A stretch of 64,000 nt of DNA from contig CBDUPA010000001.1 in NCBI GenBank assembly GCA_965368975.1, positions 64,001 through 128,000 on the forward strand, in the 5' to 3' direction. Source of the stretch: an uncultured bacterium. GTDB lineage: Bacteria > Acidobacteriota > Thermoanaerobaculia > Multivoradales > JAHZIX01. Position 1 is the stretch's first letter. Every line of letters begins with the position of its first letter. The notes beneath the pieces are model-generated. The model worked only from the letters and a program-made list of their open reading frames with translations. It was not told the origin of the DNA and ran no database searches. Positions 14,029 through 62,766 of the stretch are shown here, piece after piece. Made by a program: the position numbers and the translations under genes.

Positions 14029-17000
14029 TCAGTCCTGCAACAACATCTCCAACCCGTCTCCCCCCGACAGCAGCGCTTCGGCTTCCTCGTCACTCATCGA
14101 TTCGAGACGCGCCAGTAGGGCTTGCAGCCGCCCCGGATCGGGAGCACCCGGCTTCGGGGGCGTGCGCCCTTGCAGCTGCCGGCGGTTGACCTTGCCGGTG
14201 CTGGTGAGGGGGAACTCGTCGAGCCACACCAGCTGGCTGGGGACCATGTAGCGCGGCAGGCGCTTGCTGAGGAACTGGCGTAGTTCGGACGTCTCGAGCG
14301 AGCGGTCGGGGTCGGTCAGCAGGTAGGCGACGAGGCGGCGGTGAGCACCGCCTTCGGGCACGATGACGACGGCCTGGCGGACTGCGGCGTGGGCTTCCAA
14401 GGCGTTCTCGATTTCGCCCGGTTCGACGCGATGGCCGTGCAGTTTGAGCTGGTAGTCGATCCGACCGAGGAACTCGAGGCTGGAGTCAGGGCGGCGGCGA
14501 ACCCGGTCGCCCGTGCGGTAGAGCCGGCCACCGGGGTGGTCGCTGAAGGGGTCGGGCACGAAGCTGCCGGCAGTGCGTGCCGGGCGCCCCAGGTAACCGC
14601 GCGCCAGGCCCTCGCCACCGATATAGAGCTCGCCTTCGGCAGCCAGCGGCAGCAGCGGGGCGGCTGGACCTCGCTGGGTGTCCAGGACATACAGGCGTGT
14701 GCCGCGGAGCGGCTGGCCGAGCGGCACTGGCAGTTGCCCTCCGCGCACTCGTTGCAGGCTCGACCAGACGGTGGTCTCGGTGGGGCCGTAGAGGTTCCAC
14801 AGTCGGGGTGCCGAGGTCGAAGCGCTGTTGCTTCTCTGCTTGGCGGCCGCGTGGCTGGTGGTCGAGGTGGTTGTCCTGGTGAGCCGTTCCGCCAGGTCGT
14901 CGGTCAGCGCTTCGCCGCCACACAGCAGCTTGAGGCCGGGTCGTTCGAGGCGTGACGGTGGCGTCCAGCCTGCGTCGAGCAGCAACCGCCAGGTGACCGG
15001 CGTTGCCTGCAGGACGGTGGCGCTGATGGCGCGTAAGCGCTGGCTCAGCAAGCGGCCGTCGCCGGCGGTCTCGTGGTCGACGACGTGGACGCGGGCGCCA
15101 GCGGCCAGTGGCAGCAGCAATTCGACGACCGAGATGTCGAAGGTCAGCGGGGTCACCGCGGCCACCGAGTCGGCGGGGTCGAAGCCGGGTTGGTGCAGCA
15201 GCGACGCTGCCAGGTTGGCGACGGACGCGTGGCACACCATGACGCCCTTGGGGCGGCCGGTGGAGCCGGAGGTATAGAGCACATAGGCCAGGTGGTCGCC
15301 GCTCGGAGGACCGAGCAGTGGCTCCCGTGGCTGTGCCGAACTCAGCGGTGCGTCGACGTCGAGCAGGGTGGGTACTGCATCGCCGCCGGCTGGCAGCTCG
15401 GGGCGCAGGCGTCGCAGTTGAGGGCCTTCGCCCAGCACGAGTGAGGGGCGTGCGTCGGCTACCAGGGCCCCCAGGCGGCGCGGCGGTAGCTGCGGATCGA
15501 GGGGCAGGTAGGCGGCACCGGCGCGCAGCACGGCCAGGGTTGCGACGACCAGCCGGGCCGAGCGCTCGAGGCACAGGCCGACCAGCGTCTCGGGACGCGC
15601 GCCGGCCGTGCGCAAGCGCGCCGCCAGGCGGCCACTCTCGTCCCATAGACGGCTGTAGTCGAAGTGCTCGACACCATCGTCGAGGGCGGGTTTTTCAGGG
15701 TGTGCTGTCGCCTGCGCGGCGATCAACTGCAGTAGCAGCGGGGCACTGCTGTCCGGGGGCCCATGCTTGGCGGTCTCGGTTCCCTGCACCTCGTGCAGTA
15801 GGAGCTGGGACTGCGCGGGGCTGAGCAAAACGCTGTGGGTGCAGTCGGCGTCCGGGTTCGCCAGCAGGCTCTGGACGGCCAGGGTGTACACCTCGCCGAT
15901 GGCGCGCAGCTGGGCGCCGGAGATGCGCGCCTCGTCGGCGACCAGGTCGAGGACCAGCGTGTCGGCCAGCGGGTTGCGCCGGAAATCGGCACGTAGAGCG
16001 AAGCTGGTGTGATCGAAGCCTTCGGCTTCGAGCGGTCGCAGGAAGTGCAGGTCGCTGAGTTCGTCGAGGGCGTGGAAGTGAGTGAAGTTGAACACCGTCT
16101 CGACCAGCCCGGTCTCGCCCAGCAGGCGCTGGATCTCGACCAGCGGCATGTGGCGGCTGGGGAGTAGTTCGCGCTCGGCCTCGAAGGCGGTGCGCACCAG
16201 GCCGAGCCAGCTACCGCTGGGCGTCAGCGCCAGCGGCAAGATGTTCATGTGCATGCCGAGCGTCTCTTCACTCCGCGGTAGGGCCGGCCGGCCGTTGGCT
16301 TCCAGGCCGGTCAGCACACTGCGCTGCCCGGTCAGGCGCTGCAGGGCTGCCAGGTGGGCGGCCAGCAGGGCGTGCTTGAGACTCACCTGAGCGCGACGTA
16401 CCAAGGCGCCAAAGTGCACGGGTGGTGGCAGCGGTAGGCTGAGGACGCGCACGCGCGGGGGGCCGGCTTGGGGTCGCCAGCGCGGCAATGGGGTCGCCTG
16501 GACGCCGGTCAGCTGCTGCTTCCACCAACGCCGCAGATGTGGGTTGCGCACGGCTTCCACCTCGCGTGCCACGAACTCGCGGAACACGACAGGCGGTGGC
16601 CCCAGCTGCAAGGGATTTCCGGCCAGCAGGCGATCGTAGCGGCGGAGCCACTCGGTACACAGGCGCGCCGTGCTCCAGCCGTCGAGCACGGCGTCGAAGA
16701 AGCTGAGGCCGACGGCGAATCCTTGTGCCAGGCGCAGCAGGTAGAAACCGACCAGCCCCGGCTCGCGCCAGGTGAGGGGCTGCGCCTTCTGCTCTTCCAG
16801 CCAGGTGGTGATCTCGGCTGCGGTCAAGTCCTCTACGCTGCTGAAGTCGACTTCGTGGAAGCGCACGGTGGTGCGGGCGTGTACCAGCTGCAGCGGTCGG
16901 CTGTACTCTGAAAGGTCGAAGGATGTGCGCAGCATCGGATGGCGGTCGACCAAGTCTTGCGCCGACTGGCACAACTGCGACGGGTGGAGCGGTCCTTGCA

Positions 17001-20000
17001 GGCGGCACAGGAAGATGTCGCGGTAGAGCGGGGCCCCCGGATCGTGCTGGATGTGGAAGACGATGCCGGTCTGTGTGGCGGTCAGCGGATAGGCGTCGAC
17101 ACACCCGGCCGGCAGGCGTTGCCGATCGTCGTCGCTGATCAGGCAGAACGGGTCGGGCGCCAGCACACGCGGTGCGCCGTGGCCCTCGTTCTGGCTGGCA
17201 TCTCCACGGCGCAGCCGCGGTGCCAGGGCGCGGATGGTCTGGTGACGGTAGAGGTCTTCCAGGGCCACGGTCCAGCCGCGTTCGGTCAGGCTGCCGCGCA
17301 CCTGCAGCGTGCGGATCGAGTCGCCGCCGAGTTCGAAGAAGTTGTCTTCGACGCCGATGTCGGGCAGGCCGAGAACGCGGCTCCACACGGCGGCAAGAGC
17401 ACGCTCGCGTTCGTCCTCGAGGACGTAGGTGTCGCCTGGCGGACGAGCTGGCGAGACGCCATCGCCAGCGTCCAGCGGCTGCCCCGTCAGCTGCCCGGCG
17501 GACTGCCTGCCGGCCGCCGGGCCGAGTTGCTGCAGCTGGCCACGGTCGACCTTGCCGCTCTGCGTGCGGGGCAAAGTGGTGAGTGGCACGAAGAGGCTGG
17601 GCAACAGCATTGCCGGTAGACGCTCGCCCAGGAAGGCGCGCAGTTCGGCGGCATCGGGAGCCTCCCCCTGGTAGGTGAACCACGCCACCAGCTGCGCCGG
17701 GGCGCGGTCGTGGCTGGCGAATGCCGGCAGGGCTTCGCCGCGAGGGGCTGCGCCAGCCTTGAAATGGCGCAGCTGGTTGGGCTCGGCAGTCGCTGCCGGA
17801 CTCCTACGGCCTTCGGCGCCGGACGGAGCTTGTGCCCTATCGGTAGGCCTGTGCGCGGGTTCGCTGGGATAGTGAAGGCCGACGATCGCGTCGGTGATCC
17901 GTGGATGCTCGCTCAGGGCGGCCTCCAACTCGCCGGCCTCGACGCGCAAACCCCGGATCTTGAGTTGGTGGTCGAGGCGCCCCAGGAAGAGCAGGGCGCC
18001 GTCCGGACGGTAGCGGACCAGATCACCCGTCCGGTACAGGCGTTCGCCCTGCTTGCCGGTGGGGTCGAGGATCAAGGAGGGGTCGGGTACGAAGGTGGCG
18101 GCGGTGCGTGCTGGAGCGCCCAGGTAGCCGCGCCCGAGACCGGCGCCTGCCAGTGCCAGCTCTCCAGGGATGCCCAGTGGCTGCAGGCGCAGCACGCGAT
18201 CGACAACGTGGCAACGTAGGTTGGCGATCGGCCGGCCAATCGGTACTTCGCGCAGCAGGTTCTGGCTCGGCCCGCCTCGTTGCTGCCGGTCGCCGCTGCA
18301 GTTCCAGGCGGTGACGTCGATGGCGGTCTCGGTGGGACCGTAGAGGTTTTCCAGCTGCACGCTGGGCAAGCGTTCCAGGCAAGCACGTGCCAGCGACGGA
18401 CTCAGCGCTTCGCCGCTGGCCACGATCCGGCGCAAGCTGCGGGCTTCACCTACCCCCGGCTCGTCAACGAAGGCGCGCAGCATGGACGGCACGAAGTGCA
18501 CCACGGTGACGCGCTCGCGGGCCGCCAGCCGGGCAAGTTGGCGGGGGTCGCGATGCACCCCGGGCGGGGCCACGATCAGTTGCGCCCCGGTCATCAGCGG
18601 CCAGAAGAACTCCCACACTGAGACGTCGAAGGTGAAGGGGGTTTTCTGCAGCACGCGGTCGTCGGCGCCGATCGGGTAGGCGAGTTGCATCCAGCGCAGG
18701 CGGTTGGCGAGGGCGAGGTGGCTGTTCATCGCCCCCTTGGGGCGGCCGGTGGAGCCGGAGGTGAACAAGACGTAGGCCAGCTGCCGTCCGTCCACGGGCC
18801 CTGGAGGCGCGTCGGCCTCCGAGGCTTCCCCCGGTCCCGGCAGCGTCTGGGGTTCGAGTTGGGCTCGGCCTTCTGGGTCCAGGCGCAGCAGCGGCGGCGT
18901 GGAGCGGGCAAGTGCCGGAGTCTCGGCGTCACCTAGCAGACACACGGGGGCGGCGTCGTCCAGCAGGGCTTCGAAGCGTCGCGCCGGCTGGTCCGGGTCG
19001 AGCGGCAAGAAAGCGGCACCGGCCTCGAGGACCGCGACCAGCGCCACCACGCGCGCTGCACTGCGCGGCAAGCACACGCCGACCAGGCGTTCAGGACCGG
19101 CTCCGAGAGCCCGCAGCTGCTGGGCCAGGGTCCGGCTGTGTGCGGCAAGCTGGGCGTAGGTCAATTCGACCGTCGGCACGTTGTGCTCTCCCGGGGCGCG
19201 CACGGCCAGCGCACCAGGGCTACGTTGCGCCTGAGCGCGGATGGCTTCGTGCACGAGTCCACCGAGTTGCCGGCGTGCCGCCCACGCGGCGCCAGCCCAC
19301 GCCGTGTCGTTGAACTCGTGGAGCAGCGCCTGGCGCTCTGCTGGCAGCAGGATCTTCAACTGGAGGCAGTCGATGGGGGCCTCGTGCGTCGGCAGGTCTC
19401 GGGCGAGCGCGACGAGCTGTCCAAGCCAGCTCTCGAATTGTCCTGCCCACCGCAGCACGGTGGTGGTGTCGAAGAGGTCCGTGCAGCCCTGCCAGTCGAG
19501 GAGTAGGCTGCCGCCAGGACCGTCAGCCAGGAACAGGGCCAGATCGAATTGCGCGGTCTGCGTGCGCAGGCGGAGCGGGCGCGCTGTCCAGGCAGCCAGC
19601 GGCAACTCGACGCGCTCGTCGGCGAGGGCGAATGCGGAGGTGCCCGCGGGCGAACCTGCCGGTGCGTGTTGCCAGCTGACCAGGATCTGGAACAGGGGCG
19701 AGCGGCTCGGGTCGCGGCGCGGCTGCAGCTGTTCGACCAGCTGGTGGAACGGGTAGCGGCGGTGGCGCAGGGTGGCCGCCAACTCGCCGCGCAGGCGGGC
19801 CAGACGCAGGGCGAAGGGATCGGAGCCGGAGATGCCGTGCAGCGCGGCGCGCAGGACCAGCGGGTTGACCAAGTAGCCGACGCGCTGGGCGTCCTCGACG
19901 CTGTCTCGGCCGTGGTACAGCGTCCCGAGTAGGGCTTGCTCGCTGTTGCTGACAGTGTTGCTGGCGACAGTACTGCTGGAGCTGAGGCCAACGGTGCGGC

Positions 20001-23000
20001 GGAGCCAGGCTTCGAAGGCCGTGAGCACCACCAGGAAGGGGGTCGCGCTGTGCCGGCGAGCCAAGTCGCGCAGGCCGCTGGCGGTGTCAGGCGGTACTTG
20101 CCGCAGCCAGCGCTCGCCGCGGTCGCTCTGCAGCGCGGGCCGTGGTCGATCGGAGGGGAGTTCGAGGGGAGGTGGCAGCTCCTGCTGCCTCGCTGTCTCT
20201 CTCTCGCCGTGACCGGGTAGCAGCGGTCGTAGATGCTGGACGGCAGCGGCTGCCATGTTGCGCGCGTCGGCGCTGCTCAGCCAGGCGCGCTGGCGCAGTA
20301 CCCAGGCAGCGTGGTCGCCGGGCACTGGTGGCAAGCGGCGGTCGGCGTAGAGGGCAGCCAGCTCCTGCAACAGCAGGGCGACCGAGCCGAAGTCGGCGAC
20401 CAGATGGTGGACGGTGAGGAGCAGGACGTCGCCGATCTGGGCTTCGTGGTCCTCCACTTTGGCCGGCATGGCAACGCCGCTCCACAGGTGTAGGCGGATC
20501 AGGGGGCCGCGTTCGAGGTCGAAAGGTCGGTGTGCCTGGTCGGTCATCTCTGCGCGCAGGGCTGGCAGCGAGCGGCCGGCGGCTTCTTGCACATCGACGG
20601 CTGGCGGTCGCGAGTCGCTGGCGGCGCGCCGCTGGCGCGGTGGACCGCCACCTGCGCGGAAGGTCATGCTCAGGCCGGAATGGCGCTGCAACAGCTGCTG
20701 GAAGGCTTGCCGCAGTGCGCCATGTTCGATCTGGCCAGGGATATGGACCGCCACCCATACGTTGTAGGCGGCGCTGCGCGGGTGCAGTTGCTGCAGGAAG
20801 AAGAGTGCTTCCTGGCCGGGGGTCAAGGGCAGGTCGATGGTGCTATCGACAGGGCTCTCGACGGTGCCGACGTCGGGTGCCGCGGTAGGCTCCTCGACAC
20901 GGGAAGCCGCGTCGAAACTCTCGTGCTGCATCGCGTCTTGCTGAGAAGTCTCCTGCTGAGAAGTCTCCTGCCGGTGGGGGGGCTCTTGCAGTTCAGCGCC
21001 CTGTGTCGCTGGCTGCGCCAGGTCGCGCAGACTGGCACCGCTGAGCAGGTCCGAGAGGTCGACGTCGAGGCCGTAGGTCGCCAGGCTCTGTTGGAGTTCG
21101 GCGGCGGCCAGCGAATCCAGCCCGTAGTGCAGCAGAGGGCGGTCAGGCTCGGGTGGTTGCGCCAGGCCCAAGCAGCGGGCCACCTCTTCGCCCAGCCGGT
21201 GCAGGCCGGGTGTGCCGAGTCTGGTGGCGGGCTTGCCGTTCTCGTCGATCCGTGTCTGATCGGCCGTTTCCTGGGGGGACGTTTCGCCGCCCGTTGGCAG
21301 GGCTGTCGCTTCGATCCGTGACGGGCCGTACCAGGCCGCGACGACTGGCAACTGGCCGTCGAGCCAGCCGAGCCGGCAGGCTCGACGCTGAACCTTGCCG
21401 CTGGAAGTGCGGGGCACGCCGCCGTGGCGCACCAGGAGGATGGCCCAGGCGGTCACCTGGTGTTCGGCTGCCAGCGCCTGGCTGATCGCCGCCCGGATCG
21501 GTGCCAGTCGTCGCTCGGGCGGCTCGCCGCTACTGGAGCCGGACCTGGCCTCGCCGCTGACGGCACCGATCTCGCGCAGGGCAGCCGCTTCGAGTTCCAG
21601 CACCAAGACCAGGCGTTCGCCGTCGCCATCGTCGAAACCGAAGGCCGCTGCGGCGCTGGGTCGTAGGGCGAAGTGACTCTCTTCAGCACTGCGCTCGAGA
21701 TCTTGCGGATGGTGGTTGCGGCCGCGCAGGATGATCAGATCCTTGAGACGGCTGGTGAGGAAGAGTTCGCCGCCGTGCAGGAAACCGAGGTCACCGGTGC
21801 GCAGGAAGCCCTGTGCTTCCTGAGCCGAGGATACGTCCGTAGTGCCCTTGCTCGTAGCGTCCTTGCTCGTAGTGCCCTTGCCCGAGGAGTTGTCTACCAA
21901 GCGGGCTTCGAAGATGCGCTGCGTCGCCTCGGGCTGGCCATGGTAGCCGGCGGTCACCGACGGACCGGCGAGCCAAACCTCGCCGACCTGACCTGGCGGG
22001 CATGCCTCCTTGGTTTGCGGATCGACAATTCGCACGCTGACGCCGGGGGCTGGTGTACCGCAGCTGACGAGGGTCTTGGTGAGTGCTGGTGGCGTGTGCG
22101 CGACAGTCGTCTCGACGGCCTGGTGATGTTCCAGAGCAGCTCGCTGGAACTGACGTACGACGGGGGGTTGGTCGGCCGGGCTACTACTGACGAGGAGCGT
22201 GGCTTCGGCCAGGCCGTAGCAGGGCAAGAAGGCGCTCTGGGCAAAACCACAGCGGCCAAAGCGGCGACCGAAGGCGGTGAGGCTGCCGGCCCGGACGGGC
22301 TCGGCGCCGTTGAAGGCGACGCGCCAGCTGCTGAGGTCGAGGCCTTCGAGGTCGGCGTCGGGGATGCGCCTCCGGCACAGGTCGTAGGCGAAGTCGGGGC
22401 CACCACTGGTGGTGCCGCCGAAGTGATGGATGGCACGCAGCCAACGCACCGGCCGGCGCAGGAAGGCCACCGGTGCCATCAGCACGCAGCGACCGCCGGC
22501 GTACAGGGGTTGCAACATGCCGCCAATCAAGCCCATGTCGTGGTAGAGCGGCAGCCAGCTGACGACCACGGTGTCAGCGTCGTGGCCGAAGGCTCGGTAG
22601 ATCATGGCCTGGTTGGCCAGCACGTGGCGGTGCGCGACCCGCACGCCGCGCGGCTGGGCAGTCGAGCCGGACGTGTACTGGAGGAAAGCGAGGTCGTCGG
22701 CGTCCGGGGTGTGGGGATGCCAGGATTCGGCAGCGGCGTCGTCGATCTGGTCGGTGGCCAGCCACTGCACGTCGGCCGGGGCTTCGATCGCCTTCTGTAG
22801 GCGCCGGGCGAGGCCCTCGGTGGTCAGTATGCAACGGGCGCCGGAGTCGCGCAGCAGGGTCTCGGTCCGTCCGGCTTCGCGCCGCTGGGGCGGGTAGGCG
22901 GGAACCGCGACGACACCGGCGTACAGGCAGCCGAAGAACGCGTTGACGAAGTCGGGGCCGGCGGGATAGAGGAGCAGGGCCCGCTGACCGCTCAGGCCGC

Positions 23001-23232: not shown

Positions 23233-23881
23233 GCTTTCTCTCGGGCTCTCCTGCTCTGTTGCTCTCCTCGGGATCTCGGCTGGCAACGAAAGGACGCTGG
23301 CGGGACCGGATGGAAAGTCAGCGTAGGCTGCACGCCTGACCTTGTCAACCTCAGATCAATCTTCAGTCGCACAAGAAAGGACGGGCAGAGATGAATTGCT
23401 ATCTTGTAACATTCAAATTTGGAAATGTGTCTAACATTGGCGATTGTGCATGGTTTGGCCAAGTTTTTTGTCCCGCTTCGAGAACACATCCACACCTTCA
23501 TAAACAAAGGGCTAGTCATAGAATGCCGCTGGTTGCGGTGGGACGCCGAGGTGTCGAGCTAGCCCGGAGTTCGCGAGAACTCTTCCCTTTCATTCGCCGG
23601 CGAGATCGGGCGCGATCCGCTGAAGCCGGAGACTCAACTGATTCCGAGGGATGGGCAGGAAGGTGGGCCCCCTTGTGGTGGACACTGATCAAATTCGTGC
23701 GTCAAAACAACTGGATCGCCAAAGTCGCCGCAGCTCGCACTCAGCCCGGAGTGTGGCGTACTGGAATGCCCCGCACTGGAATGCCCCGTACTGGAATACA
23801 CTGTCTCGGGATACTCCGTATAGGAACGCTTCGTCGAGGTCTGCCCCAGGTGGGGCGGACTCTGGTCGTGGGAGGTGGGTC
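23233..23881. promoter_or_regulatory. Divergent intergenic/promoter region of the NRPS-PKS cluster
   Basis: ~650 bp between head-to-head genes, with an AT-rich core at ~23390-23520 and a GGAGG RBS before ATG 23882. Confidence 0.55.
23757..23801. repeat. 15-nt tandem repeat (3 copies, followed by degenerate copies)
   Basis: CGTACTGGAATGCCC CGCACTGGAATGCCC CGTACTGGAATACAC. Confidence 0.8.
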
Positions 23882-25372: not shown

Positions 25373-25595
25373 TTGATTCGAAAATGCAGGCCCGTGCTAC
25401 GTGCTTCTGCCGGCGTCCCGCGCCGCGACGGGGGACGTGTGCTGAAGTTGCGGCCGTACCTGGAGAAACGAGGCGAGAGAGGTGATCTGGAGCGATCCAT
25501 CCAACCAAGATCTGAGACGGGAATCGTCGGCCCAGGCTGGCGATCGATCGCTAGAGCAGGGTTGGGATCACCTGGGTGAGGTGGAACGAGAGATA

Positions 25596-34121: not shown

Positions 34122-34179
34122 GCCGATCCAGACTCGATGATGTGAGATGCAACCCGCAGACGAAGAAGGAACTGGTGCA

Positions 34180-42486: not shown

Positions 42487-42534
42487 ATACACCGTCCGAT
42501 GCTTGATTTGTCCTGTCTTGGAGGAGGTAGACCC

Positions 42535-57400: not shown

Positions 57401-60400
57401 GGCACTGATCGAAGTCGGTCCCGGGCGGGGGCTGCGTACCCTGCTGCGCCGTCAGCCGGCGTTCCAGCAGTCGGACCCCAAGGAGGCCGGTCGCGTCCTG
57501 GCCGGCTCGCTGCGGGGTCCCAAGGACGAGGCCGCCGATCTCGAGTTCCTCCTGACCGAGCTGAGCCGCCTGTGGCTGGGCGGCGTCGATGTCGACTGGA
57601 GGGCGTTCCGGGGGCAGGAGACCCGGCACTCCGTCATCCTGCCGACCTACCCTTTCGAGCGCAAACGCCACTGGGTCGAACCGGGGGCCGGTCCCCAGCG
57701 GCTCGTGACGGGTGGTGCGACGGATCGACTGCCGCGGCTGGGCGATTGGGTCCACGTGCCGGCCTGGCGGCAGCAGCCACTGGCGGCGCGTGCCGCCGGT
57801 GTCGAGCGCCGGCGCGGTCCCTGGTTGGTGCTAGCCTTCGCCGGCGCTGCGCGCGACGCGTCCACCAAGCTGGCCGAGACGCTGGTGGCGGCCTTGCGGC
57901 GGCATGGTCACGAGGCTGACGTGCGCCTGCTGGAGAGTGCCAGCGTGCAGAGTGCCAGCGTGGACAGTCTTGGTGTGGACGGTATCAGCGCGAGTCCGGA
58001 CGCAGCCACCTGGCGCGCCGAGTTCGACGCAAGGGTCGGCGATGACAGCCTGCCGGCCGGCATTGTCGATCTACGTCCCTTCTGGTCCGCCGACCACCAG
58101 GAAGATGGACCCAAGGCCACCTCTGAGGCCGTTTCCGAGGCGAGCTTCCATGGTCCGCTGCAACTCCTGCAGGCCTTCGCCGGCTGCCTCGGTGAGCGGG
58201 GTACAGAGGCGGACAGCACGGCTCCGGGGCACCTCTACCTGGCGGTCAGCCGTGGCGCGCTGGCGATCGACGAGACCGAGGTGATGGCGGTCGAGCCCGA
58301 GCGCAGTGCGCTGCTCGGTCTGCTCACCGTCACCCAGCAGGAGAATCCGGACCTCGCCTGCCGCTTGCTCGATGTCGGCGCCACGAGCGGTGGCGCACAG
58401 GCGCTGGCCGAGATGCTGGTGCAGGAGCTGGAACGTGGCGACGAACTGGTGGTTGCCCGCCGTGGGCGCAGGGGGCGCTGGCTGCCCTCGCCGCGGTGTC
58501 TGCCCCTGCCGCCCGCCGAGCAGCGACCCGCGCTGCTGCGCGAGCAAGGGGTCTATCTGCTCACCGGCGGTCTGGGTGGTGTCGGCTTGGTGCTGGCGCG
58601 CTACCTGGCCCAGCGGGTCCCAGGCGTTCGCCTGGCACTCCTTGGACGCAGCGGCTTGCCGCCGCGCGCACACTGGGACGCTTTCGAGGCGGAGCACCAG
58701 GCGAACGACCGCCAGAGTCGAGCGATCGAGGCGGTGCGCGAGTTGGAGCAGCAGGGCGCCGAGGTCGAGGTGGTGGTCGCCGATGTGGCTGATCGGCAGG
58801 CGATGGCCGAGGCACTGGCCGCCGTGCGTCGACGTTTCGGGGCTCTCCATGGCGTGATCCATGCAGCGGGCCTGTCCGGGGAAGCTGCCTTCCGGCCCCT
58901 TGGCCAGCTGGACCGTGCTGCCTGTGAAGCGCAGTTCCGGCCCAAGATCACCGGCACGCGGGTGCTCGCCGAGCTCCTGCACGGGGGCTCGACTGCCGAT
59001 CCAGCCGCAGATCCCGCTCCCGACTTCGTCATGGTGACCTCGTCGATCTCCACCGTGCTGGGTGGTATTGGTTTCGCTGCTTACGCCGCTGCCAATCTCG
59101 GGCAAGATGCCCTTGTCCAGGACCAGGAAGCCCAGCAACAAGCCAGAGAAGCGGCGCCAGCGAGCACCACGCGCTGGCTGAGCATCGATTGGGACGCCTG
59201 GAATCTGGAAGCGGTGGCAGGCACGCAGTTGGCGCTGACGCCAGAAGAAGGTCAGGAACTGCTCGACCGCGTGCTGGCGCATGCCAGCAGTGGAGGAGAG
59301 GGGCACGTCGTCATCTCGGTCGGCGCCCTGGCGGCACGCATGCAGCGTTGGTGCACCGTCGAAGAGCTGCGTCGAGCCCGCGACGAACATCGTCGGGAAG
59401 CTGCCTCGGCGGCGTCCGGCGATGGGGACCGGCCGCAACTGGACACCGCCTACGTGGCGCCGCGCAGCGATGCCGAGACGGCCCTGGCGGCGATCTGGAG
59501 CGAGCTGCTGGGCATCGACCGCATCGGCATCCACGATGACTTCTTCGAGCTTGGCGGTCACTCGCTGCTGGTGACCCAGTTGCTGACCCGCATCCGGGAC
59601 CAGCTCGGTGCCGAGCTGGAAATGGCGATGGTCTTCTCGCGCCCGACAGTCGCCGAGCTGGCCGTCAGCCTGGCAGACGAGCTGCCGGCGGGCACGCGTC
59701 AGCTCGAGGCACCACCGATCGTACCGGTGCCGCGCGACCAGCCGCTGCGCTTGTCCTTTGGCCAGGAGCGCTTCTGGTTCCTGCAGCGTCTAGATCCCGA
59801 GAGCATCGCCTACAATCTGCCGGCGGCCATCCGCCTGCTCGGCCGGCTGGACGTGAGGGCACTGCAACTTTCCTTCGACGCCATCGCTTGCCGCCACGAG
59901 ATGCTGCGCACGCGCTTCGTGGAACGAGACGGCAAGCCGTTCCAGCTCGTCGAGCCTCGCCTGCGCTACCCGTTGCCAGTGGTCGACCTCAGTGCTCTCG
60001 AAGCCGCACGCCGTGAGCAGCTGGTCTATGCCCTCGCCTTCCGCTACGCCGACGATCCCTTCGATCTTGCGGCTCTGCCGCTGCTGCGCAACTGCCTGCT
60101 GCGGCTAGCGGTCGGCGAGCACACCTTCCTGACCGTCGGGCATCACATCATCTCCGATGGTTGGTCGGGCATTCTCTTCGTCCAGGAGCTGGGGGAGCAC
60201 TATCGCACCTTCCACGGGAAGCAGTCTGCAGACAGTGGACCTGCCAGCGTCGAGATGCCCGAGGCGTTGCCGTTGCAGTATGGCGATTATGCCGTCTGGC
60301 AGCGCGATTGGTTGCAGGGCGAGGTGCTGCAACAGCAGATCGACTTCTGGTGCCGCCAGCTGGAGCCGCCACCGCCGGCGCTGCGCCTGCCCTACGACCG

Positions 60401-62645
60401 GCCGCGCGTCAGTGGGGAGACGGCGCCCGCCGGGCGACTGTCGACCCGTGTCCAAGCGCCCGTGCTGTCGAAGCTACGCAGCCTGGCGCTGAACTTCTCT
60501 GCACGCGAGGGCGAAGCGCAGGCGCACGGCATCACCTTGTTCATGATCCTGATGGCAGCCTACTTCACGCTGCTGTATCGCTACAGCGGTCAGAGTGACC
60601 TCGCCGTCGGTACTCCGATCGCCAATCGTCACCGCTCCGGGACCGAGGGCCTGGTGGGCTTGTTCATCAATACGCTGGTCTTGCGGTTGCATCTCGACGC
60701 GGCGTCGTCGGATGGTGGTGCGCTTCGGTTCCCGCGCCTGGTCCAGCAGCTGCAGCAGGTCTCGCTCGCCGCCTACGATCAGCAGGACTTGCCGTTCGAC
60801 GAGCTGATCAAGCGACTGCCGGCAGACGGCGGCGAGCGGCGTACGCAGCGATCGCTGTTCACCACCATGCTCGCCTTCAACCACGAGCCGCCGCCGGCTC
60901 TGCAGCTACCGGAGTTGGAGATCGGCCTGGTCGACCTCGATCAGCGGCGTGTCGAAGCGATGTACGACTTCGTCCTCGGCATGACCGACTTCGGCGATCA
61001 TCTCTACGTTTCGGTCGAGTACGATCGCTCGCGCTTCGACGCGACGTCGGCGCAGCGCTTCAGCGAGGCCTACCTGCGCGTGCTGGGAGAGATCGCCACG
61101 GACGCCGAGCGCAGCCTCATCGAATTGCCGGTGCTAGGGGCCGGTGAGCGTCACCAGTTGCTGGTCGAGAACCGGCGCGCAGATGCAGCCTGGGTCGGAC
61201 GCCACCGCGACCGGTTGCCGTCGCAGTGGAGCGGACAAGCCTTGCGAGGCGTCTACGTGCTCGATCCCCAAGCCGGCCTGACGCCCATGGGGGCCGTCGG
61301 TGAGTTGTACGTCGAGGCCGAGGACCAGCCGTCGCTGACGCCGGTACCCGAGGGGCAGCCCGTACGACCCCGCTTCGCACCCGACCTGCAGCTCTGGCCG
61401 ACCGGTGTACGAGTGCAGCGGCGGGCCAGCGGCGAGCTGCAATTGCCTGGCGAAGCCAACTATCCTTTCGTCGACCTCGGCCGGCGCGCTCGCGGCAGTG
61501 CCGACAACGAAGAAGAGCGGCGGCAGGAAGAACAGGCGGCCGATCAAGTGTGGAGCCAGGTCAGCAGCCGGCAGGAGAAGCTCTCAGCCAAGAAGAAGGC
61601 CATGCTCGCAGCCCGCTTGCGCGGTGCCCTGCGCTCCAAGACCGCGAATGCCGAGGCGGCTGGATCGGCACGACCGAAGACCACGGCAGGAGCTTCTGCG
61701 CCGTCCCGCGTGCGCGACCTGGAGGCCGTCAAGGCGGCCCTGGCACGCAAGCGTGCCGCCGCCGCCCAAATGCGCTCAGAGGACTCCCTGCTCCTCAAGA
61801 TCCAGCCGGCCGGAGAGCAGCCGGCCGTAGCCTGTGTACATGCGATCGCCGGTGACGTCACCTGCTATCTGGCGCTGGCCGACCATCTCGGTCGAGACCG
61901 GCCGGTCTACGGTCTGCAAGCTGAGGGTCTCGATGGCAGCCGCCAACCGCTGCGCCGCGTCGAGGACATGGCTGCCCGGTACCTGGACATCCTCCGACGG
62001 GAGCAGCCGGCAGGCCCTTACCTGCTCGTCGGCTGGTCCATGGGTGGGGTCATCGCGCTGGAAATGGCGCAGCAGCTGGGCGCGGCCGGCGAGAACGTGC
62101 CGTTGCTCGTGCTGCTGGAACCGTCTGTACCCGGAATCCAGGTGCCGCTGGACGATACCGGCATCGTCGAGTCGCTGGCTCGTGACCTCGAGAGCGCTCT
62201 CGACCAGCCGCTGGATGTGACCCTCGAGCAGCTGCTGGAGAAAGATCTGGAAACTCAGCTGACCACATTGTTCGAACAGGTCAAGCGCCACGGTCTGCCG
62301 TTCTTCGATTTCGACCGCTCGGCGCTGTCCTCACTCTTCCGCCTCTACAAGGCCAACGTCGCGGCCCTGCAGGACTACCGCCCACAGCCCTACGCCGGCC
62401 GCAGCGCCGTGTTCATCGCCCGCGAGCGGCCGCCGGCCACCGAGCCGGAGCCGTCCGATTTCTGGACCGGGGGGTTACTACAGGATCACCAGCGGGTCGA
62501 CGTCGGCGGCGGCCACACCTCGATGCTGCAAGAGCCGCACGTACGGGATCTGGCGCGCCGTTTGACGCGACTTTTCACCCAGGCGGCCGAGGATCTTGAC
62601 CCTGCAGCCAAGGACGCTGATGCCGCGGAGTCAATTCGTGATTGA
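51462..62645 (+). CDS. Hybrid NRPS-PKS terminal protein: C-A(Ser)-PCP-KS-AT-KR-ACP-C-(A remnant)-TE
   Basis: N-terminal LSPAEKRELL; C HHIISD; A DVWHFSLVDK; KS QTACSTS; AT HAFHS; KR GGLGGVG/YAAAN; carrier GGHSL; C HHIISDG; decayed A fragment GAVGELYV; TE GWSMGG and GHTSML. ATGA overlap with the upstream gene. Confidence 0.9.
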   Translation: MSDRPRPEQLSPAEKRELLAKLMRQRDQGGPRFHPLSFAQQRLWFLDRLDPSGRHHRIYQAFQLRGALRPQFLHRALQAIVDRHDSLRTFFVTTAGKPAAAVAPGLRLRLPVLDLHLTTWAKPGDAQQTEEAVLQRALERPFQLDRGPLLRCTLLRCSEDRHLLLVEMHHIISDAWSVGVLLRELAALYDAQVRAATSQQAPAPGLADALPPLRAQYPSYARWQRQRLQGDLLAENLAWWRQQLAALPALLELPLDRPRPPVQSHHGGVLPVHWPAHLYERVRELGRRNGASAFVVLLAAFQAFLGRLTGARDLAVGTPVAGRDRSELEGLIGFFINSLVLRANLQGDSPAGPGFDSFLRRTRDAFLGAFDHSQVPFDRLVEELKPERNLSYHPLYQVDFQLQAEPVPPLELSGLVIEPRFLDAGLTGFDLAVQLEAQPDGSVAGWVQHGTAILDRSTVERWLRGYRTLVESALDTPAGCLFELSVLTAAERHQLVREWNDTETAFEDLFEDPSHGAFVRETLLHRAFEAQAAAVPDAPALTFRGDTWSYRQLDQRANRLAHYLRRLGVRRETRVAVCLERSHELVVALYAVLKAGGAYVPVDPGYPAERLEFLLRDAAAPVLLTQERLLGDLGLEDQGVEGLCLDRDWPRIEQAVDATRAEEPPRVELQPENAAYVIYTSGSTGQPKGAVNRHLSIDNRLAWMQRAYPLDASDVVLQKTPFSFDVSVWEFFWPLRQGARLVMAEPGGHQDPAYLIRTVAAEGVTTMHFVPSMLQLFVDHPRAADANAALRRVFCSGEALPPELVQRFFERVGVRPGQTAIELHNLYGPTEAAVDVTYEPCSPGKIGHSVAIGRPVANTSVVVLDSARRPLPIGVAGELFLGGVQLARGYHRRPSLTAQRFVPDPLATSGPGSRLYATGDETRLLPDGRVEFLGRIDFQVKLRGLRIELGEIEAALRTAEVDGRTLVHEALVLVLDAASGEGHKDQRLVAYVQPEGLPAERFDAAPVLVQLRERLPEYMVPSQLIALDAWPLTANGKLDRKALMQRPLPRQEAASASDQTASPAGHPSGVPEDLEASITAIWRDVLGVDKIGAEQSFFDLGGHSLLLAQVQARLLEDLGRELPLVELFQHPTVRSLARHLSPRGAEAVQARVSRRGDEDADVAVIGVAGRFPGAADVDQLWHNLEQAVESIAFFERDEVEESPFGFGDPDNPNFVLAGGLLDDPDLFDADFFGYTPREAQLLDPQQRLFLEACWQLLERAGIDPARFAGRVGVFGGTGISAYFSYNLMSRPDIVASAGAFQLLTSSDKDFLPTRVSYKFNLRGPAVNVQTACSTSLVAAHLAYESLLRGECDVALAGGVSLRVPQRTGYLYQPGMILSPDGHCRAFDADAAGTILGSGVAVLAFKRLSAALADGDPVLAVIKGSAINNDGSDKVGFTAPSVDGQTQVITDALANAGVDARSIGYVEAHGTGTDLGDPIEVAALTQAYRAHTDERGFCALGSLKTNVGHLDTAAGAASLIKTVLSLQHAVIPASLHYQQPNPQIDFDASPFFVAAETRAWPAPSDGTPRRAGVSSFGIGGTNVHMVLEEPPARSPGGQGASGSSRSAQLLVLSARSDTALEAATERLHGFLEAHPEVPLADVAWTLQHGRHRFDYRRALVVHDHEDALAVLCGEHGKRLIGRHDGESGRPVAFLFPGQGAQYPGMGRQLYALEAAYRDAVDACAELLQPHLADTDSDGDIRTLLMPPLEDLASEAAERLAADRLAADRLRQTRFAQPALFVVEYALAQLWRSWGIEPRALIGHSIGEYVAACLAGVLTLPEALRLVAARGRLMQGLPAGAMLSVPCSEADLEARLASWRDQGRHTDVCVATINAPDLCVLAGPIPSIDAVQADLEGEGLEVRRLHTSHAFHSAMMEPVLSAFGAEVKKAQLQAPRLPFVSNVTGTWIRAEEATDAGYWVRHLRHAVRFGDGAALLLEDERLALIEVGPGRGLRTLLRRQPAFQQSDPKEAGRVLAGSLRGPKDEAADLEFLLTELSRLWLGGVDVDWRAFRGQETRHSVILPTYPFERKRHWVEPGAGPQRLVTGGATDRLPRLGDWVHVPAWRQQPLAARAAGVERRRGPWLVLAFAGAARDASTKLAETLVAALRRHGHEADVRLLESASVQSASVDSLGVDGISASPDAATWRAEFDARVGDDSLPAGIVDLRPFWSADHQEDGPKATSEAVSEASFHGPLQLLQAFAGCLGERGTEADSTAPGHLYLAVSRGALAIDETEVMAVEPERSALLGLLTVTQQENPDLACRLLDVGATSGGAQALAEMLVQELERGDELVVARRGRRGRWLPSPRCLPLPPAEQRPALLREQGVYLLTGGLGGVGLVLARYLAQRVPGVRLALLGRSGLPPRAHWDAFEAEHQANDRQSRAIEAVRELEQQGAEVEVVVADVADRQAMAEALAAVRRRFGALHGVIHAAGLSGEAAFRPLGQLDRAACEAQFRPKITGTRVLAELLHGGSTADPAADPAPDFVMVTSSISTVLGGIGFAAYAAANLGQDALVQDQEAQQQAREAAPASTTRWLSIDWDAWNLEAVAGTQLALTPEEGQELLDRVLAHASSGGEGHVVISVGALAARMQRWCTVEELRRARDEHRREAASAASGDGDRPQLDTAYVAPRSDAETALAAIWSELLGIDRIGIHDDFFELGGHSLLVTQLLTRIRDQLGAELEMAMVFSRPTVAELAVSLADELPAGTRQLEAPPIVPVPRDQPLRLSFGQERFWFLQRLDPESIAYNLPAAIRLLGRLDVRALQLSFDAIACRHEMLRTRFVERDGKPFQLVEPRLRYPLPVVDLSALEAARREQLVYALAFRYADDPFDLAALPLLRNCLLRLAVGEHTFLTVGHHIISDGWSGILFVQELGEHYRTFHGKQSADSGPASVEMPEALPLQYGDYAVWQRDWLQGEVLQQQIDFWCRQLEPPPPALRLPYDRPRVSGETAPAGRLSTRVQAPVLSKLRSLALNFSAREGEAQAHGITLFMILMAAYFTLLYRYSGQSDLAVGTPIANRHRSGTEGLVGLFINTLVLRLHLDAASSDGGALRFPRLVQQLQQVSLAAYDQQDLPFDELIKRLPADGGERRTQRSLFTTMLAFNHEPPPALQLPELEIGLVDLDQRRVEAMYDFVLGMTDFGDHLYVSVEYDRSRFDATSAQRFSEAYLRVLGEIATDAERSLIELPVLGAGERHQLLVENRRADAAWVGRHRDRLPSQWSGQALRGVYVLDPQAGLTPMGAVGELYVEAEDQPSLTPVPEGQPVRPRFAPDLQLWPTGVRVQRRASGELQLPGEANYPFVDLGRRARGSADNEEERRQEEQAADQVWSQVSSRQEKLSAKKKAMLAARLRGALRSKTANAEAAGSARPKTTAGASAPSRVRDLEAVKAALARKRAAAAQMRSEDSLLLKIQPAGEQPAVACVHAIAGDVTCYLALADHLGRDRPVYGLQAEGLDGSRQPLRRVEDMAARYLDILRREQPAGPYLLVGWSMGGVIALEMAQQLGAAGENVPLLVLLEPSVPGIQVPLDDTGIVESLARDLESALDQPLDVTLEQLLEKDLETQLTTLFEQVKRHGLPFFDFDRSALSSLFRLYKANVAALQDYRPQPYAGRSAVFIARERPPATEPEPSDFWTGGLLQDHQRVDVGGGHTSMLQEPHVRDLARRLTRLFTQAAEDLDPAAKDADAAESIRD

Positions 62646-62702
62646 TCGCACAAGAGGCGCCCCGACACGGCGGCGCAAGCGGCTGCGATCGCGGGCTCTT
62701 CA

Positions 62703-62762
62703 GCTCGACTCTCTCCAGTGCTGTGGTATACACTGTCGTTGTTCCACAGACGAAAGGAGAGA
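62703..62762 (+). promoter_or_regulatory. Putative sigma70-type promoter and RBS of the beta-barrel gene
   Basis: CTCGAC-17 nt-TATACA with TG upstream of the -10-like hexamer; AAAGGAGA before ATG 62767. Confidence 0.35.
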
Positions 62763-62766
62763 CGTT

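Follow-up and report, generated by a model that had tools for sequence, protein, structure and literature searches.

A single intact hybrid peptide-polyketide gene cluster, equipped with one release enzyme and two separate units for loading fatty acids, occupies positions 14029-62645 of the window, the 64,000-nucleotide stretch of an uncultured Acidobacteriota contig analysed here (CBDUPA010000001.1, positions 64,001 to 128,000). The cluster is conserved within its family, and its most likely product, proposed with somewhat less than even confidence, is a two-tailed (doubly lipidated) peptide-polyketide made by convergent assembly.

All six cluster ORFs are open and full length. Together they encode three FAAL, six amino-acid A, ten carrier and nine C-like domains, as well as three KS-AT pairs, two KR domains, one C-methyltransferase (cMT) and one thioesterase (TE). 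Domain positions were set with HMMs built from the cluster's own domains, and the Pfam matches (AMP-binding, Condensation, PP-binding, KS, AT, KR, methyltransferase and thioesterase) have E-values from 1e-17 to 1e-221; chance is no concern for ORFs of 2,700-3,700 codons at such scores. NRPS domains (C, A and carrier) and PKS domains (KS, AT and carrier) occur together, at Pfam scores far above the cut-offs, which makes this a hybrid NRPS/type I PKS cluster. The PKS parts show Cys/His/His in the KS, GHSxG and HAFH in the AT, and a Rossmann motif and Tyr in the KR; the HAFH motif of statine-type modules is taken as malonyl-specific. Ten pocket positions were read in the A domains, placed by GrsA anchors, and the substrate names, which follow from pocket signatures, are putative. 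The three FAAL domains all score best against fatty-acid--AMP ligase NCBIfam models (400-440 bits, under the full-protein cut-offs), with an ACP directly after the FAAL in gene 1 and gene 4. The HHxxxDG histidines are missing or altered in three of the nine C-like domains, and a scan of all frames of 70 aa or more across the whole window turned up no further carrier domain. These domain calls confirm the inventory in a preliminary description of this DNA (five A domains with a carrier, one without, one TE, a stand-alone C domain and a terminal C domain without A-T), and its substrate guesses (Ser/Gly, D-Ser and Lys; Phe-derived and Ser-derived statine-type units) are consistent with the pocket residues.

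Gene 1 (P0001; 14029..23286, minus strand) encodes FAAL-ACP-C-A(Ser)-T-CmodAA-A(Gly) and an acidic tail, as judged from the ORF, Pfam and HMM matches and pocket reading. Its likely start is the ATG at 23232, which is also the start of the 3067 aa database record. The FAAL (21337..23160; HMM match, best NCBIfam families fatty-acid--AMP ligases, below cut-offs) is followed by an ACP (21010..21168; weak HMM match with a visible DSL serine motif) and a first C domain (19333..20835), which keeps HHxxxD and is predicted to acylate Ser with the FAAL-loaded chain. The Ser-type A domain (17551..19239; HMM and pocket residues) and its GGDSI-type carrier (17212..17400; HMM) precede a second C domain (15787..17097) and an A domain with a Gly-type pocket (14191..15720), which is complete to motif A10 and has no carrier behind it. 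A predicted acidic docking tail (14032..14190) closes the protein, all of these features lying on the minus strand. The carrier-less Gly-type A domain and the acidic tail are present in all six gene 1 copies, and the pocket residues are conserved in the five copies in which they were read (5/5). Gene 1 appears to act in trans, because it is inverted in the window and lies alone, still intact, on another contig in one relative (G002).

The C domain ahead of the carrier-less Gly-type A domain is assigned, by alignment, PDB relatives and motif, to the CmodAA (dehydrating) type in a form without both active-site histidines. Among relatives with solved structures it scores best against McyA (8jbr, 237 bits) and AmbE (7r9x, 169 bits), with PvdL next at 99 bits and others at 99 bits or less. 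The hallmarks of CmodAA domains, as given in sections of PMC11342130, are [K/R]SVLLAAH ahead of C5 and a conserved DG in the active-site motif. This DG is kept in gene 1, and the subtype motif [K/R]xxLLAAH (seen as K..LLA(A/V)H) occurs in all five gene 1 C2 copies and in 0/43 other aligned C-like domains. Both histidines are absent from the same five copies, replaced by Phe/Leu/Val plus Asp. The residue written as Ser* in the preliminary description is best read as Ser that would be converted to dehydroalanine by the CmodAA domain, as the PDB relatives and the subtype motif suggest.

The His-less CmodAA domain before a Gly-type A domain gives gene 1 a resemblance to the starts of Crz1 and BlmVI. 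We take the domain order of BlmVI to be acyl ligase-ACP-C-A(Ser)-T followed by CmodAA, as in gene 1. The architecture had earlier been described as unlike any characterised cluster; for gene 1 this no longer holds, as it parallels both Crz1, missing carrier included, and the N-terminal part of BlmVI (PMC11342130, in part). Crz1 (corallorazine, Corallococcus coralloides) shares with gene 1 the run C(acylating)-A(Ser)-T-CmodAA-A(Gly), the lack of a carrier in the second module and the logic of converting acyl-Ser to acyl-dehydroalanine, as far as the relevant sections of PMC11342130 describe it. Gene 1 differs in having FAAL-ACP fused in front, a Gly-type A domain without N-methyltransferase and a CmodAA domain without both histidines, and in being part of a six-gene hybrid line. 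No carrier-reductase gene (Crz2-like T-reductase) or small carrier ORF was found in the window and related loci. Membership of the crz cluster family was considered and rejected because the N-methyltransferase in A2 and the Crz2 T-reductase ORF are absent. CmodAA domains of the bleomycin type also lack both histidines (Phe plus Gly/Ala in Blm, Tlm and Zbm, against the Phe/Leu/Val plus Asp of gene 1), and in these systems an amine is proposed to attack a transient dehydroalanine instead of forming a normal peptide bond (PMC11342130 and PMC10880069, each in part). Unlike in BlmVI, the next A domain of gene 1 is Gly-type and carrier-less, and there is no pyrimidine-forming context.

Gene 2 (P0002; 23882..25372 from Met78, longest ORF from 23651; plus strand) is a stand-alone DCL-like C domain, which retains the second His and has a conserved basic C-terminal tail. 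It is the only domain with a catalytic His between the gene 1 and gene 3 carriers. Gene 3 (P0003; 25482..34121, plus strand) encodes C'-A(Ser)-T-E-C-A(Lys-like)-T and an acidic tail. Its very divergent N-terminal C-like domain (25626..26924, plus strand) has neither histidine in any of the six copies. The epimerisation domain (28842..30302, plus strand; TIGR01720, 112.5 bits against a cut-off of 74.2) bears the E signature and the next C domain has the D-clade N-terminal motif, as in an E domain followed by a DCL domain. The last A domain of gene 3 with its carrier (31800..33758, plus strand) is the proposed junction point. Its Lys-like pocket is identical in 5/5 clusters and is acidic at positions three and four of the ten (GrsA 239 and 278). 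In none of the six genomes do genes 1-3 encode a TE, a reductase or any terminal release domain.

Gene 4 (P0004; 34147..42486, plus strand) encodes FAAL-FAAL-ACP-KS-AT-cMT-ACP and a tail, with core motifs intact in both of the tandem FAALs (34225..37746, plus strand; 34225-35946 and 36028-37746). The window copy has the C-methyltransferase and no KR, while a KR is present in the four relatives that include gene 4. Gene 5 (P0005; 42499..51465, plus strand) encodes head-C-A(Phe-type)-T-KS-AT-T-KR and a tail, the carrier being placed ahead of the KR. Hybrid modules of the statine type (A-T-KS-AT-KR-carrier) occur in the pathways of thalassospiramides, didemnins and related compounds. The same set of domains, with a malonyl-type AT, is found here, in gene 5 in the order KS-AT-T-KR. 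As in those systems, genes 5 and 6 are each predicted to join an amino acid and one malonate and to reduce the ketone, which predicts 4-amino-3-hydroxy acids from Phe and Ser; they differ in that the carriers after AT/KR are PCP-like, the gene 5 carrier stands before the KR and the assembly logic is not the same.

Gene 6 (P0006; 51462..62645, plus strand) encodes head-C-A(Ser)-T-KS-AT-KR-T-C-linker-TE. Its terminal C domain (59739..61154, plus strand) keeps HHxxxDG intact, lacks an A-T to go with it, and falls among ordinary LCL domains. The 224 aa linker between this C domain and the sole TE domain of the cluster (61827..62564, plus strand) contains a decayed A-domain fragment (approximately 61239..61451, plus strand, read by eye) and a docking-head-like motif, WSQVSSRQEKLSAKKKAMLAARLRGAL (61551..61631, plus strand). 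This motif is of the N-terminal docking type, is conserved in 4/4 clusters and is the third of its kind, besides the two N-terminal heads of genes 5 and 6, just ~25-35 aa ahead of a C domain. A loose head pattern matches 15 times in the whole genome (seven N-terminal before a C domain, seven inside A or C domains and one in a linker), and the only linker match is the one in gene 6. The same motif is found at the N-terminus of five of seven small TE proteins fetched from a profile search, suggesting that head plus TE forms a recurring trans-docking unit. Docking domains are known to occur at the N-terminus of TE domains (PMC9113145, in part). The gene 6 head-TE unit differs from these free-standing TEs in being fused behind a C domain, and the heads here, probably short helices, do not evidently match the beta-hairpin docking fold set out in that portion of PMC9113145.

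The translations bear out the earlier quotation of four acidic tails and a pair of L(S/T)xxEKRxLL heads. Within the window, an acidic tail closes gene 3 as well as gene 4, and N-terminal heads occur only on genes 5 and 6. In G001, G002 and G005, gene 3 has a short or poorly conserved tail that is not of the LSxEEVxxLL type kept by genes 1, 4 and 5; judged on conservation of the motif alone, the internal head would be better matched by the tail of gene 1 than by that of gene 3.

The architecture recurs in all five other family genomes examined (G001 to G005), as far as their assemblies show. Genes 1 to 6 are colinear on one strand in G003 and G005, as are genes 1 to 5 in G001, whose contig then ends; G004 contributes an 11 kb fragment with genes 1-3 only, and in G002 gene 1 is at a separate locus. 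Orthologues of the cluster proteins are 40-59% identical across their full lengths, and ClpA is 68-73% identical. Gene 2 has one orthologue in each of the five genomes (48-53% identity, next-best C domains at most 46%), in open frames of 520-585 aa, the match in G001 passing one TAG. Among 300 genomes of the order, full-length stand-alone gene 2 orthologues occur solely in this family (6/6, including the window genome); the four remaining strong matches are embedded domains in three cases and, in the fourth, a 679 aa frame that lacks the tail. The T-C-linker-TE end is found in all four complete gene 6 copies, and the His-less motifs of gene 1 C2 and gene 3 C1 are retained across the relatives. 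Because they are conserved in this way, the oddities of the layout are probably functional. The presence of gene 2 in all five genomes and the adjacency of the lipid-primed halves in G001, G003 and G005 argue for a single cluster over two chance neighbours. The halves were not found apart among the genomes examined: they are side by side in these three, G002 has an intact gene 1 on another contig, and G004 is represented by its fragment. Retention of the cluster in every family genome examined, at ClpA identities of ~70%, argues that the product matters to these bacteria.

The proposed assembly has two lipid-primed lines converging on a carrier-bound Lys, with the single TE releasing the product in trans; we favour it tentatively, at rather less than an even chance. 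In arm A (genes 1-3), the FAAL would load a fatty acid, the first C domain would place the acyl chain on Ser and the CmodAA domain would dehydrate acyl-Ser to acyl-dehydroalanine. The gene 2 C domain may then hand the chain to the Ser on gene 3, which would be epimerised before extension to the carrier-bound Lys. In arm B (genes 4-6), a second fatty acid, loaded by one of the two tandem FAALs, would be extended with malonate and C-methylated, and Phe-derived and then Ser-derived gamma-amino-beta-hydroxy (statine-type) units would join. The last carrier of gene 3 (Lys) is envisaged to dock at the orphan C/head/TE end of gene 6, providing in trans the A-T lost from the terminal module; Lys would take one arm per amine, two in total, and the TE would release the product. 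We infer the order of events, the docking partner, the Lys side-chain acylation and the release step.

The Lys-like pocket shared by 5/5 clusters, the intact LCL-type terminal C domain and the linker head conserved in 4/4 are consistent with the action of the terminal C domain on the arm A lysine, and in this respect the convergent or branched interpretation of the preliminary description is partly supported, the branching itself staying conditional. Precedents are MxcG, which acylates both amines of a carrier-bound Lys (PMC8400222, in part), and icosalide dual priming (PMC6553374, in part). However, the literature surveyed contains no documented case of an LCL domain acylating the side-chain amine of a peptidyl-Lys on another protein. 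The poor conservation of the gene 3 tail in three relatives also speaks against convergence on Lys, as does the fact that it assigns no role to the conserved Gly-type A domain and gives two His-less C-like domains nothing beyond dehydration and scaffolding. The His-less CmodAA domain could instead catalyse conjugate addition to dehydroalanine, by analogy with the bleomycin proposal (PMC11342130 and PMC10880069, each in part), which would put the branch at dehydroalanine and not at Lys.

The same parts can be arranged in other ways. Gene 3 C1 is very divergent, and neither histidine is present in any of its six copies, so a working C domain in cis is missing for the first Ser of that gene. This would suit a permuted line, which we consider unlikely, in which genes 4, 5 and 6 assemble the main chain and, through the terminal C domain of gene 6, transfer it to that Ser; gene 3, docked at the internal head, contributes D-Ser-Lys, release is by the TE, and the acyl-dehydroalanine(-Gly) of genes 1 and 2 is put on the Lys side chain by the stand-alone C domain or by Michael addition. 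The position of the head motif before the TE, the mobility of gene 1 (inverted in the window and unlinked in G002), which would mark genes 1 and 2 as the rearranging parts, and the association of His-less CmodAA domains with conjugate addition in sections of PMC11342130 agree with such an order. On the other hand, ~1,700 residues would separate the docked tail from the carrier that the terminal C domain has to reach, three genomes place genes 1-3 before genes 4-6, and all the conjectural steps of convergence on Lys are shared. Several relatives have a short gene 3 tail or none, which weakens the earlier suggestion of competition between the arms for shared modules. In its full form, arm A and the gene 4 starter would both dock on the gene 5 head and feed the same modules to give two product series, with the terminal C domain and internal head as relics or release-only elements. 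The window's acidic tails on genes 3 and 4, its N-terminal heads on genes 5 and 6 only, and lipopeptides with shared modules or alternative starters such as laxaphycins (PMC7524897, in part) and puwainaphycins (PMC4219810, in part) lend it some appeal, but G001, G002 and G005 lack on gene 3 the tail type kept elsewhere and an intact, conserved terminal C domain and head would be left without purpose; we regard it as improbable.

Two separate products are a little less probable again: genes 1-3 would make a small lipopeptide (acyl-Dha-D-Ser-Lys type) released otherwise, and genes 4-6 a lipo-statine, the halves being co-inherited for co-regulation or synergy. Gene 1 alone does look like the corallorazine lipodipeptide synthetase Crz1 (PMC11342130, in part) and has a separate locus in G002, but genes 1-3 have no release domain in any of the six genomes, gene 6 has a surplus C domain and docking head, and both halves are kept in all six genomes wherever the assembly allows a check. 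The gene order of G001, G003 and G005 and the KR of gene 4 in four relatives, which would yield a beta-hydroxyacyl unit, recall icosalide, in which an elongating C domain stands beside a second initiating one (PMC6553374, in part). A strictly colinear 1-to-6 line would then esterify arm A to the beta-hydroxyl of the gene 4 acyl chain before continuing. We give this only a slim chance: gene 4 of the window, in an otherwise intact cluster, offers no hydroxyl because the C-methyltransferase is present and the KR absent, no C domain lies between genes 3 and 4, and the terminal C domain has no explanation. Least probable by our estimate, and very much so, is partial decay to a non-productive cluster, with the missing carrier, the dead C domains and the A remnant as damage. 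The degenerate A-domain fragment in the C-TE linker and three non-canonical C-like domains might be read in this way, but all six ORFs are open, each oddity is common to relatives whose ClpA is only 68-73% identical, and the pocket residues of the carrier-less A domain are conserved 5/5.

Returning to convergence on the lysine, its nearest relatives differ in where and how the lipids are joined. In the icosalide NRPS (Burkholderia gladioli), one pathway with two lipid starts gives a single two-tailed product, as proposed here, and the second chain-initiating C domain is embedded in one protein (PMC6553374, in part); here the second start is a FAAL-ACP-KS-AT module on a separate protein, and the arms are proposed to join where the line ends. 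Icosalide-type dual priming was therefore not assigned: the second start is FAAL-ACP-KS on gene 4, and the C-like domain after the stand-alone C domain is without both histidines. In MxcG (myxochelin), carrier-bound Lys is acylated on both primary amines before release, as proposed here, by one C domain using the same small aryl donor twice, followed by a reductase (PMC8400222, in part), in contrast to the two C domains on two proteins, two long chains and TE suggested for this cluster.

It is possible, if doubtful, that the cluster represents a termination module completed in trans, in which two complete, separately lipid-primed lines meet on one carrier-bound lysine, the head between the orphan C domain and the TE, of a kind ordinarily N-terminal, recruits the last carrier of the other line, two different C domains on two proteins acylate one residue for release with two tails, and a trans-acting, carrier-less Gly-activating protein that has a docking tail itself also takes part, outside current NRPS rules. 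If the lines do converge as proposed, they would be joined in a non-textbook manner, with an internal head lending a foreign carrier to an orphan C-TE pair, and the engineering of branched or doubly lipidated peptides would find a natural template in the cluster. The predicted chemistry would bring two lipid tails, a cationic Lys and a reactive dehydroalanine together with two statine units like those of protease inhibitors. The conserved carrier-less Gly-type A domain is a clean puzzle on how A domains find carriers.

Downstream of gene 6, a conserved candidate porin-like gene (gene 7; 62596..64000, plus strand) continues beyond the window end, and is followed, just outside the window, by a conserved ADOP duplicated permease; both are assigned to the cluster.

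The cluster is a hybrid NRPS-PKS lipopeptide assembly line, a known kind, in which an unusual combination of parts is conserved. Its six very large ORFs (genes 1-6, 14029-62645; G+C content of the window ∼68%) have no internal stops on translation, and Pfam scans return the full NRPS and type I PKS family set, with E-values down to 1e-221. Domain copies were placed with HMMs built from the best Pfam stretches and searched against the six proteins. Gene 1, on the minus strand and divergent from gene 2, encodes FAAL-ACP-C-A-T-C-A. The closely spaced plus-strand genes 2-6 (with a 4-base overlap between genes 5 and 6) encode, in order, a C domain alone, C-A-T-E-C-A-T, FAAL-FAAL-ACP-KS-AT-cMT-ACP, C-A-T-KS-AT-T-KR, and C-A-T-KS-AT-KR-T-C-(224 aa)-TE. 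The HMM placement reproduces the layout proposed in the preliminary description, with a carrier-less A domain, a single TE, a stand-alone C and a terminal C lacking A-T, and the translated proteins carry the four acidic C-terminal docking-like ends (tails) and the two N-terminal L(S/T)xxEKRxLL docking motifs (heads) that it reported.

Several of the ORFs have peculiarities of their own. The longest ORF of gene 2 has 77 extra codons (23651-23881) before the conserved part, containing an odd WNAP(H/Y)WN repeat; since this stretch is not kept in relatives, the true start is probably near 23882. Gene 3 ends in a long acidic low-complexity extension (33759-34118) of Asp/Glu-Pro-Phe/Leu-Ala repeats followed by Leu/Asp/Glu repeats, which is absent from relatives, whose gene 3 ends shortly past the carrier. 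In gene 5 a second carrier lies between AT and KR (KS-AT-T-KR-tail, 49102-50967); the order is KS-AT-KR-T in three genomes of the same family (G002, G003 and G005), and in a fourth (G001) the 360 residues separating AT from T gave no KR match. In both genes 5 and 6, the carrier that follows the PKS part shows a PCP-like GGHSL motif.

A search with gene 4 across 41 genomes (the window's own and 40 related) gives no close orthologue, and finds FAAL-ACP-KS-AT proteins of 55-60% identity in two same-family genomes; the loci of these matches, once fetched, contain the whole cluster. In each of the other five family genomes (G001-G005), the stand-alone C domain of gene 2 has a single clear orthologue (48-53% identity), in open frames of 520-585 aa, with the G001 match crossing one TAG, and all remaining C domains in these five genomes are at most 46% identical to it. 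Among 300 genomes of the order, full-length orthologues of the stand-alone C are confined to the window's family, and a contig search with its alignment yielded nothing beyond generic C domains of DCL-like type, spread over many phyla (40-49% identity), the family orthologues not being among them. All six genes follow one another from 1 to 6 on a single strand in G003 and G005, while G001 has genes 1 to 5 in order on one strand up to the contig end, and an 11 kb fragment of G004 carries genes 1-3. The G004 copy of gene 1 (locus L021, contig C376) is split over two frames, with a run of masked bases. In G002, genes 2-6 lie together and an intact gene 1 (3,053 residues) is on another contig, adjoining chemotaxis-receptor and GGDEF-EAL genes that also flank gene 1 in G003 and G005 (the receptor only in G001). 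Orthologous cluster proteins are 40-59% identical, compared with 68-73% for ClpA.

The conserved parts are both lipid starts, the final, carrier-less A domain of gene 1 with its acidic tail, the stand-alone C and the T-C-linker-TE end, together with heads on genes 5 and 6 and tails on genes 1, 4 and 5. Traits confined to the window are the inversion of gene 1, the second FAAL of gene 4 and the carrier before the KR of gene 5; in addition, gene 4 has a C-methyltransferase in place of the KR of the four relatives that include this gene, and gene 6 has one C-A-T module fewer than in relatives. Searching 1.84 billion representatives with a profile of the gene 6 end gives at least four more proteins with the whole C-linker-TE or linker-TE arrangement (P0129, P0131, P0132 and P0157).

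Aligned with one another, 48 C-like domains taken from the six clusters show three conserved departures from HHxxxDG, in the second C of gene 1 (C2), in gene 2 and in the first C of gene 3 (C1). Gene 1 C2 has both histidines replaced, by Phe/Leu/Val and Asp, and retains the DG; in gene 2 C only the second histidine remains, and the domain carries a conserved basic tail at its C-terminus; gene 3 C1 lacks both. In sequence searches of solved structures, gene 1 C2 matches McyA (237 bits) and the dehydrating domain of AmbE (169 bits), with all others at 99 bits or less; gene 2 C falls among ordinary D-clade domains and the gene 6 terminal C among ordinary LCL domains, and the best match of gene 3 C1 does not exceed 70 bits. 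The motif [K/R]SVLLAAH, defined in the corallorazine paper as specific to CmodAA, a dehydrating/modifying C-domain subtype (PMC11342130), is present in all five copies of gene 1 C2 and in 0/43 other C-like domains. The same paper describes the corallorazine synthetase Crz1 as C-A(Ser)-T-CmodAA-A(Gly)-nMT, with its own carrier missing and encoded on the next ORF (PMC11342130). Gene 1 thus amounts to a Crz1-like unit fused to a FAAL-ACP. The Ser predicted as the first residue of gene 1 is most likely converted to dehydroalanine, as judged from these motifs. CmodAA domains of the bleomycin family that lack both histidines are described as linked to conjugate addition rather than peptide-bond formation (PMC11342130). 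The myxoglucamide cluster (PMC13638107) also has atypical C domains but a different architecture, and was rejected as a relative. No characterised cluster of the overall architecture seen in the window was found in the full texts of the open-access library searched; the supplementary lists of corallorazine-like clusters in PMC11342130 might include relatives of gene 1.

The Gly-type A domain at the end of gene 1 is complete, with a conserved pocket and the conserved docking tail attached. A carrier for it is absent from the cluster in every one of the genomes, and a search of the window and the related loci, covering frames from 70 aa upwards, gave no hidden carrier. The whole window genome has a single small carrier-only frame, on another contig and with no link to the cluster found. 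A homologue search with the CmodAA-A(Gly)-tail region matched generic multimodular NRPSs (31-45% identity) and did not reveal a partner carrier.

For the substrates, ten pocket residues per A domain were taken from the alignment in columns anchored on motifs, without a substrate predictor; the GrsA numbering of these motifs and the substrate names attached to the pocket signatures are our working assumptions. On this basis, the gene 1 A domains have a Ser-type and then a Gly-type pocket (5/5 copies examined). In gene 3, the first A has a Ser-type pocket (5/5 complete copies) and is followed by an E domain scoring above the TIGR01720 cut-off, and the last A has one identical Lys-like pocket in 5/5, with acidic residues at the third and fourth positions (GrsA 239 and 278). 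The pocket of the gene 5 A domain differs among genomes and is Phe-type in the window, and a Ser-type pocket is found in the last gene 6 A domain (4/4 copies). All three AT domains have the motif HAFH, which we take to indicate malonyl specificity. The pockets and AT motifs therefore predict Phe- and Ser-derived 4-amino-3-hydroxy acids for genes 5 and 6, in agreement with the statine units suggested in the preliminary description.

The tandem FAAL-FAAL before one ACP (34225-37746) occurs only in the window among the five copies of gene 4 (window, G001, G002, G003 and G005), and core motifs are intact in both FAALs. The first shares 69% identity with a FAAL of another cluster in the window genome (contig C14) and 54-59% with its gene 4 counterparts in G001 and G002; the other FAAL is about equidistant from all those compared (43-48%). 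The 69% match suggests a recent intragenomic acquisition and a choice between two starter acids.

The C-TE linker of gene 6 (160-220 residues, aligned from four clusters) contains the decayed remnant of an A domain and, after it, a conserved stretch, WSQVSSRQEKLSAKKKAMLAARLRGAL in the window (61551-61631), whose pattern is that of the heads at the N-termini of genes 5 and 6. A relaxed form of the head pattern has 15 matches over all NRPS/PKS frames of the window genome, of which seven are true N-terminal heads before C, seven are core or linker motifs inside A or C, and the sole match in an interdomain linker is that of gene 6. A profile search with the linker and TE gives several free-standing TE proteins (∼320-350 residues) among the best 150 matches, and the head motif opens five of the seven that were fetched. 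Docking domains do occur N-terminal to TE domains, according to a review of docking (PMC9113145). Head plus TE thus appears to be a unit that is as a rule served in trans by a partner ending in a carrier; in gene 6 it is fused behind an orphan C. A predicted complex of the gene 6 head and TE with the gene 1 tail has an ipSAE of 0.01 (run without controls) and is taken as evidence neither for nor against their docking.

The docking and release parts thus comprise four tails (genes 1, 3, 4 and 5; several relatives have only a short one on gene 3), three heads (gene 5, gene 6 and the internal head of gene 6), one TE and one orphan LCL C, and genes 1-3 end at a predicted Lys carrier with no downstream C or release domain. 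The assignment that leaves no counted part idle would pair gene 4 with gene 5, gene 5 with gene 6, the internal gene 6 head with the final gene 3 carrier, and gene 1 with either gene 2 or gene 3. The gene 6 terminal C would take its donor from the gene 6 carrier and use Lys on the gene 3 carrier as acceptor, the other Lys amine would be acylated by the DCL domain of gene 3 itself, and the two-tailed product would be released by the single TE. Two known systems provide precedents, MxcG for double acylation of carrier-bound Lys (PMC8400222) and icosalide for dual lipid priming (PMC6553374). We tentatively favor this convergent model as a whole, at somewhat below even chances, each step beyond domain identification being inferred.

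Other readings divide the same parts differently. Genes 4-6 with gene 3 might form the main line, with genes 1-2 decorating a side chain, possibly by addition to the predicted dehydroalanine; we consider this close variant of the convergent model unlikely. It is improbable that the two lipid starts are competing starters for one line, and slightly more so that the cluster makes two separate products. The preliminary description named separate occurrence of the two halves in other genomes as evidence against its own reading; in the genomes examined this was not seen. An ester insertion as in icosalide is hard to square with a window gene 4 that has no KR, and we give it little credence. The least probable reading is decay, to which the missing carrier of gene 1 might be ascribed; the A domain concerned is complete and its pocket conserved. 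Both in assembly-line logic and in chemistry the cluster is a strong candidate for novelty, everything beyond its architecture being prediction.

In relatives G002, G003 and G005, as in the window genome, gene 6 is followed by a gene whose product (∼450-495 aa) has only porin-like leads, and by an ADOP permease gene. In the window genome these are gene 7 (62596-64000, running past the window end, with porin-like leads only) and an ADOP-family duplicated MacB/FtsX permease (L102:2231-4681 = G000:C1:128231-130681; 946 bits against a cut-off of 622), likely an export pair for the cluster product. Directly after the permease, G002, G003 and G005 have a penicillin-amidase family gene of ∼980-1,190 aa (in G003, L013:6372-9323 = G003:C47:16372-19323). 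Its closest homologues in the window genome (48% and 45% identity) are off-cluster on contig C10, with neighbours resembling ordinary flanking genes. The gene may encode a PvdQ-like deacylase acting on one lipid tail after export, or may reflect mere flanking synteny.

In the window genome assembly (7.13 Mb; the window is C1:64001-128000), the Condensation family is matched 119 times and NRPS/PKS domains occur in 117 frames, among them frames of 14,804, 13,272 and 12,957 residues, and because it is so rich in such frames an odd-looking cluster is unsurprising in itself. Modules that are split or act in trans seem to be common here. Several of the organism's other megasynthases (contigs C2, C3, C8, C16 and C47) include C-T modules without A, and some end in C or C-A; another NRPS-PKS of 5,738 residues ends ∼2.4 kb before the window start. 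To the left of 14029 are genes unrelated to the pathway, encoding an S9 peptidase, an arginine deiminase, a kinase-FGE fusion (DUF4365, Ser/Thr protein kinase and FGE-sulfatase domains, 3419-5767), ClpA, a second FGE-sulfatase domain protein (10068-11129) and a phosphoesterase. Two further kinase-TPR genes lie just outside the window.
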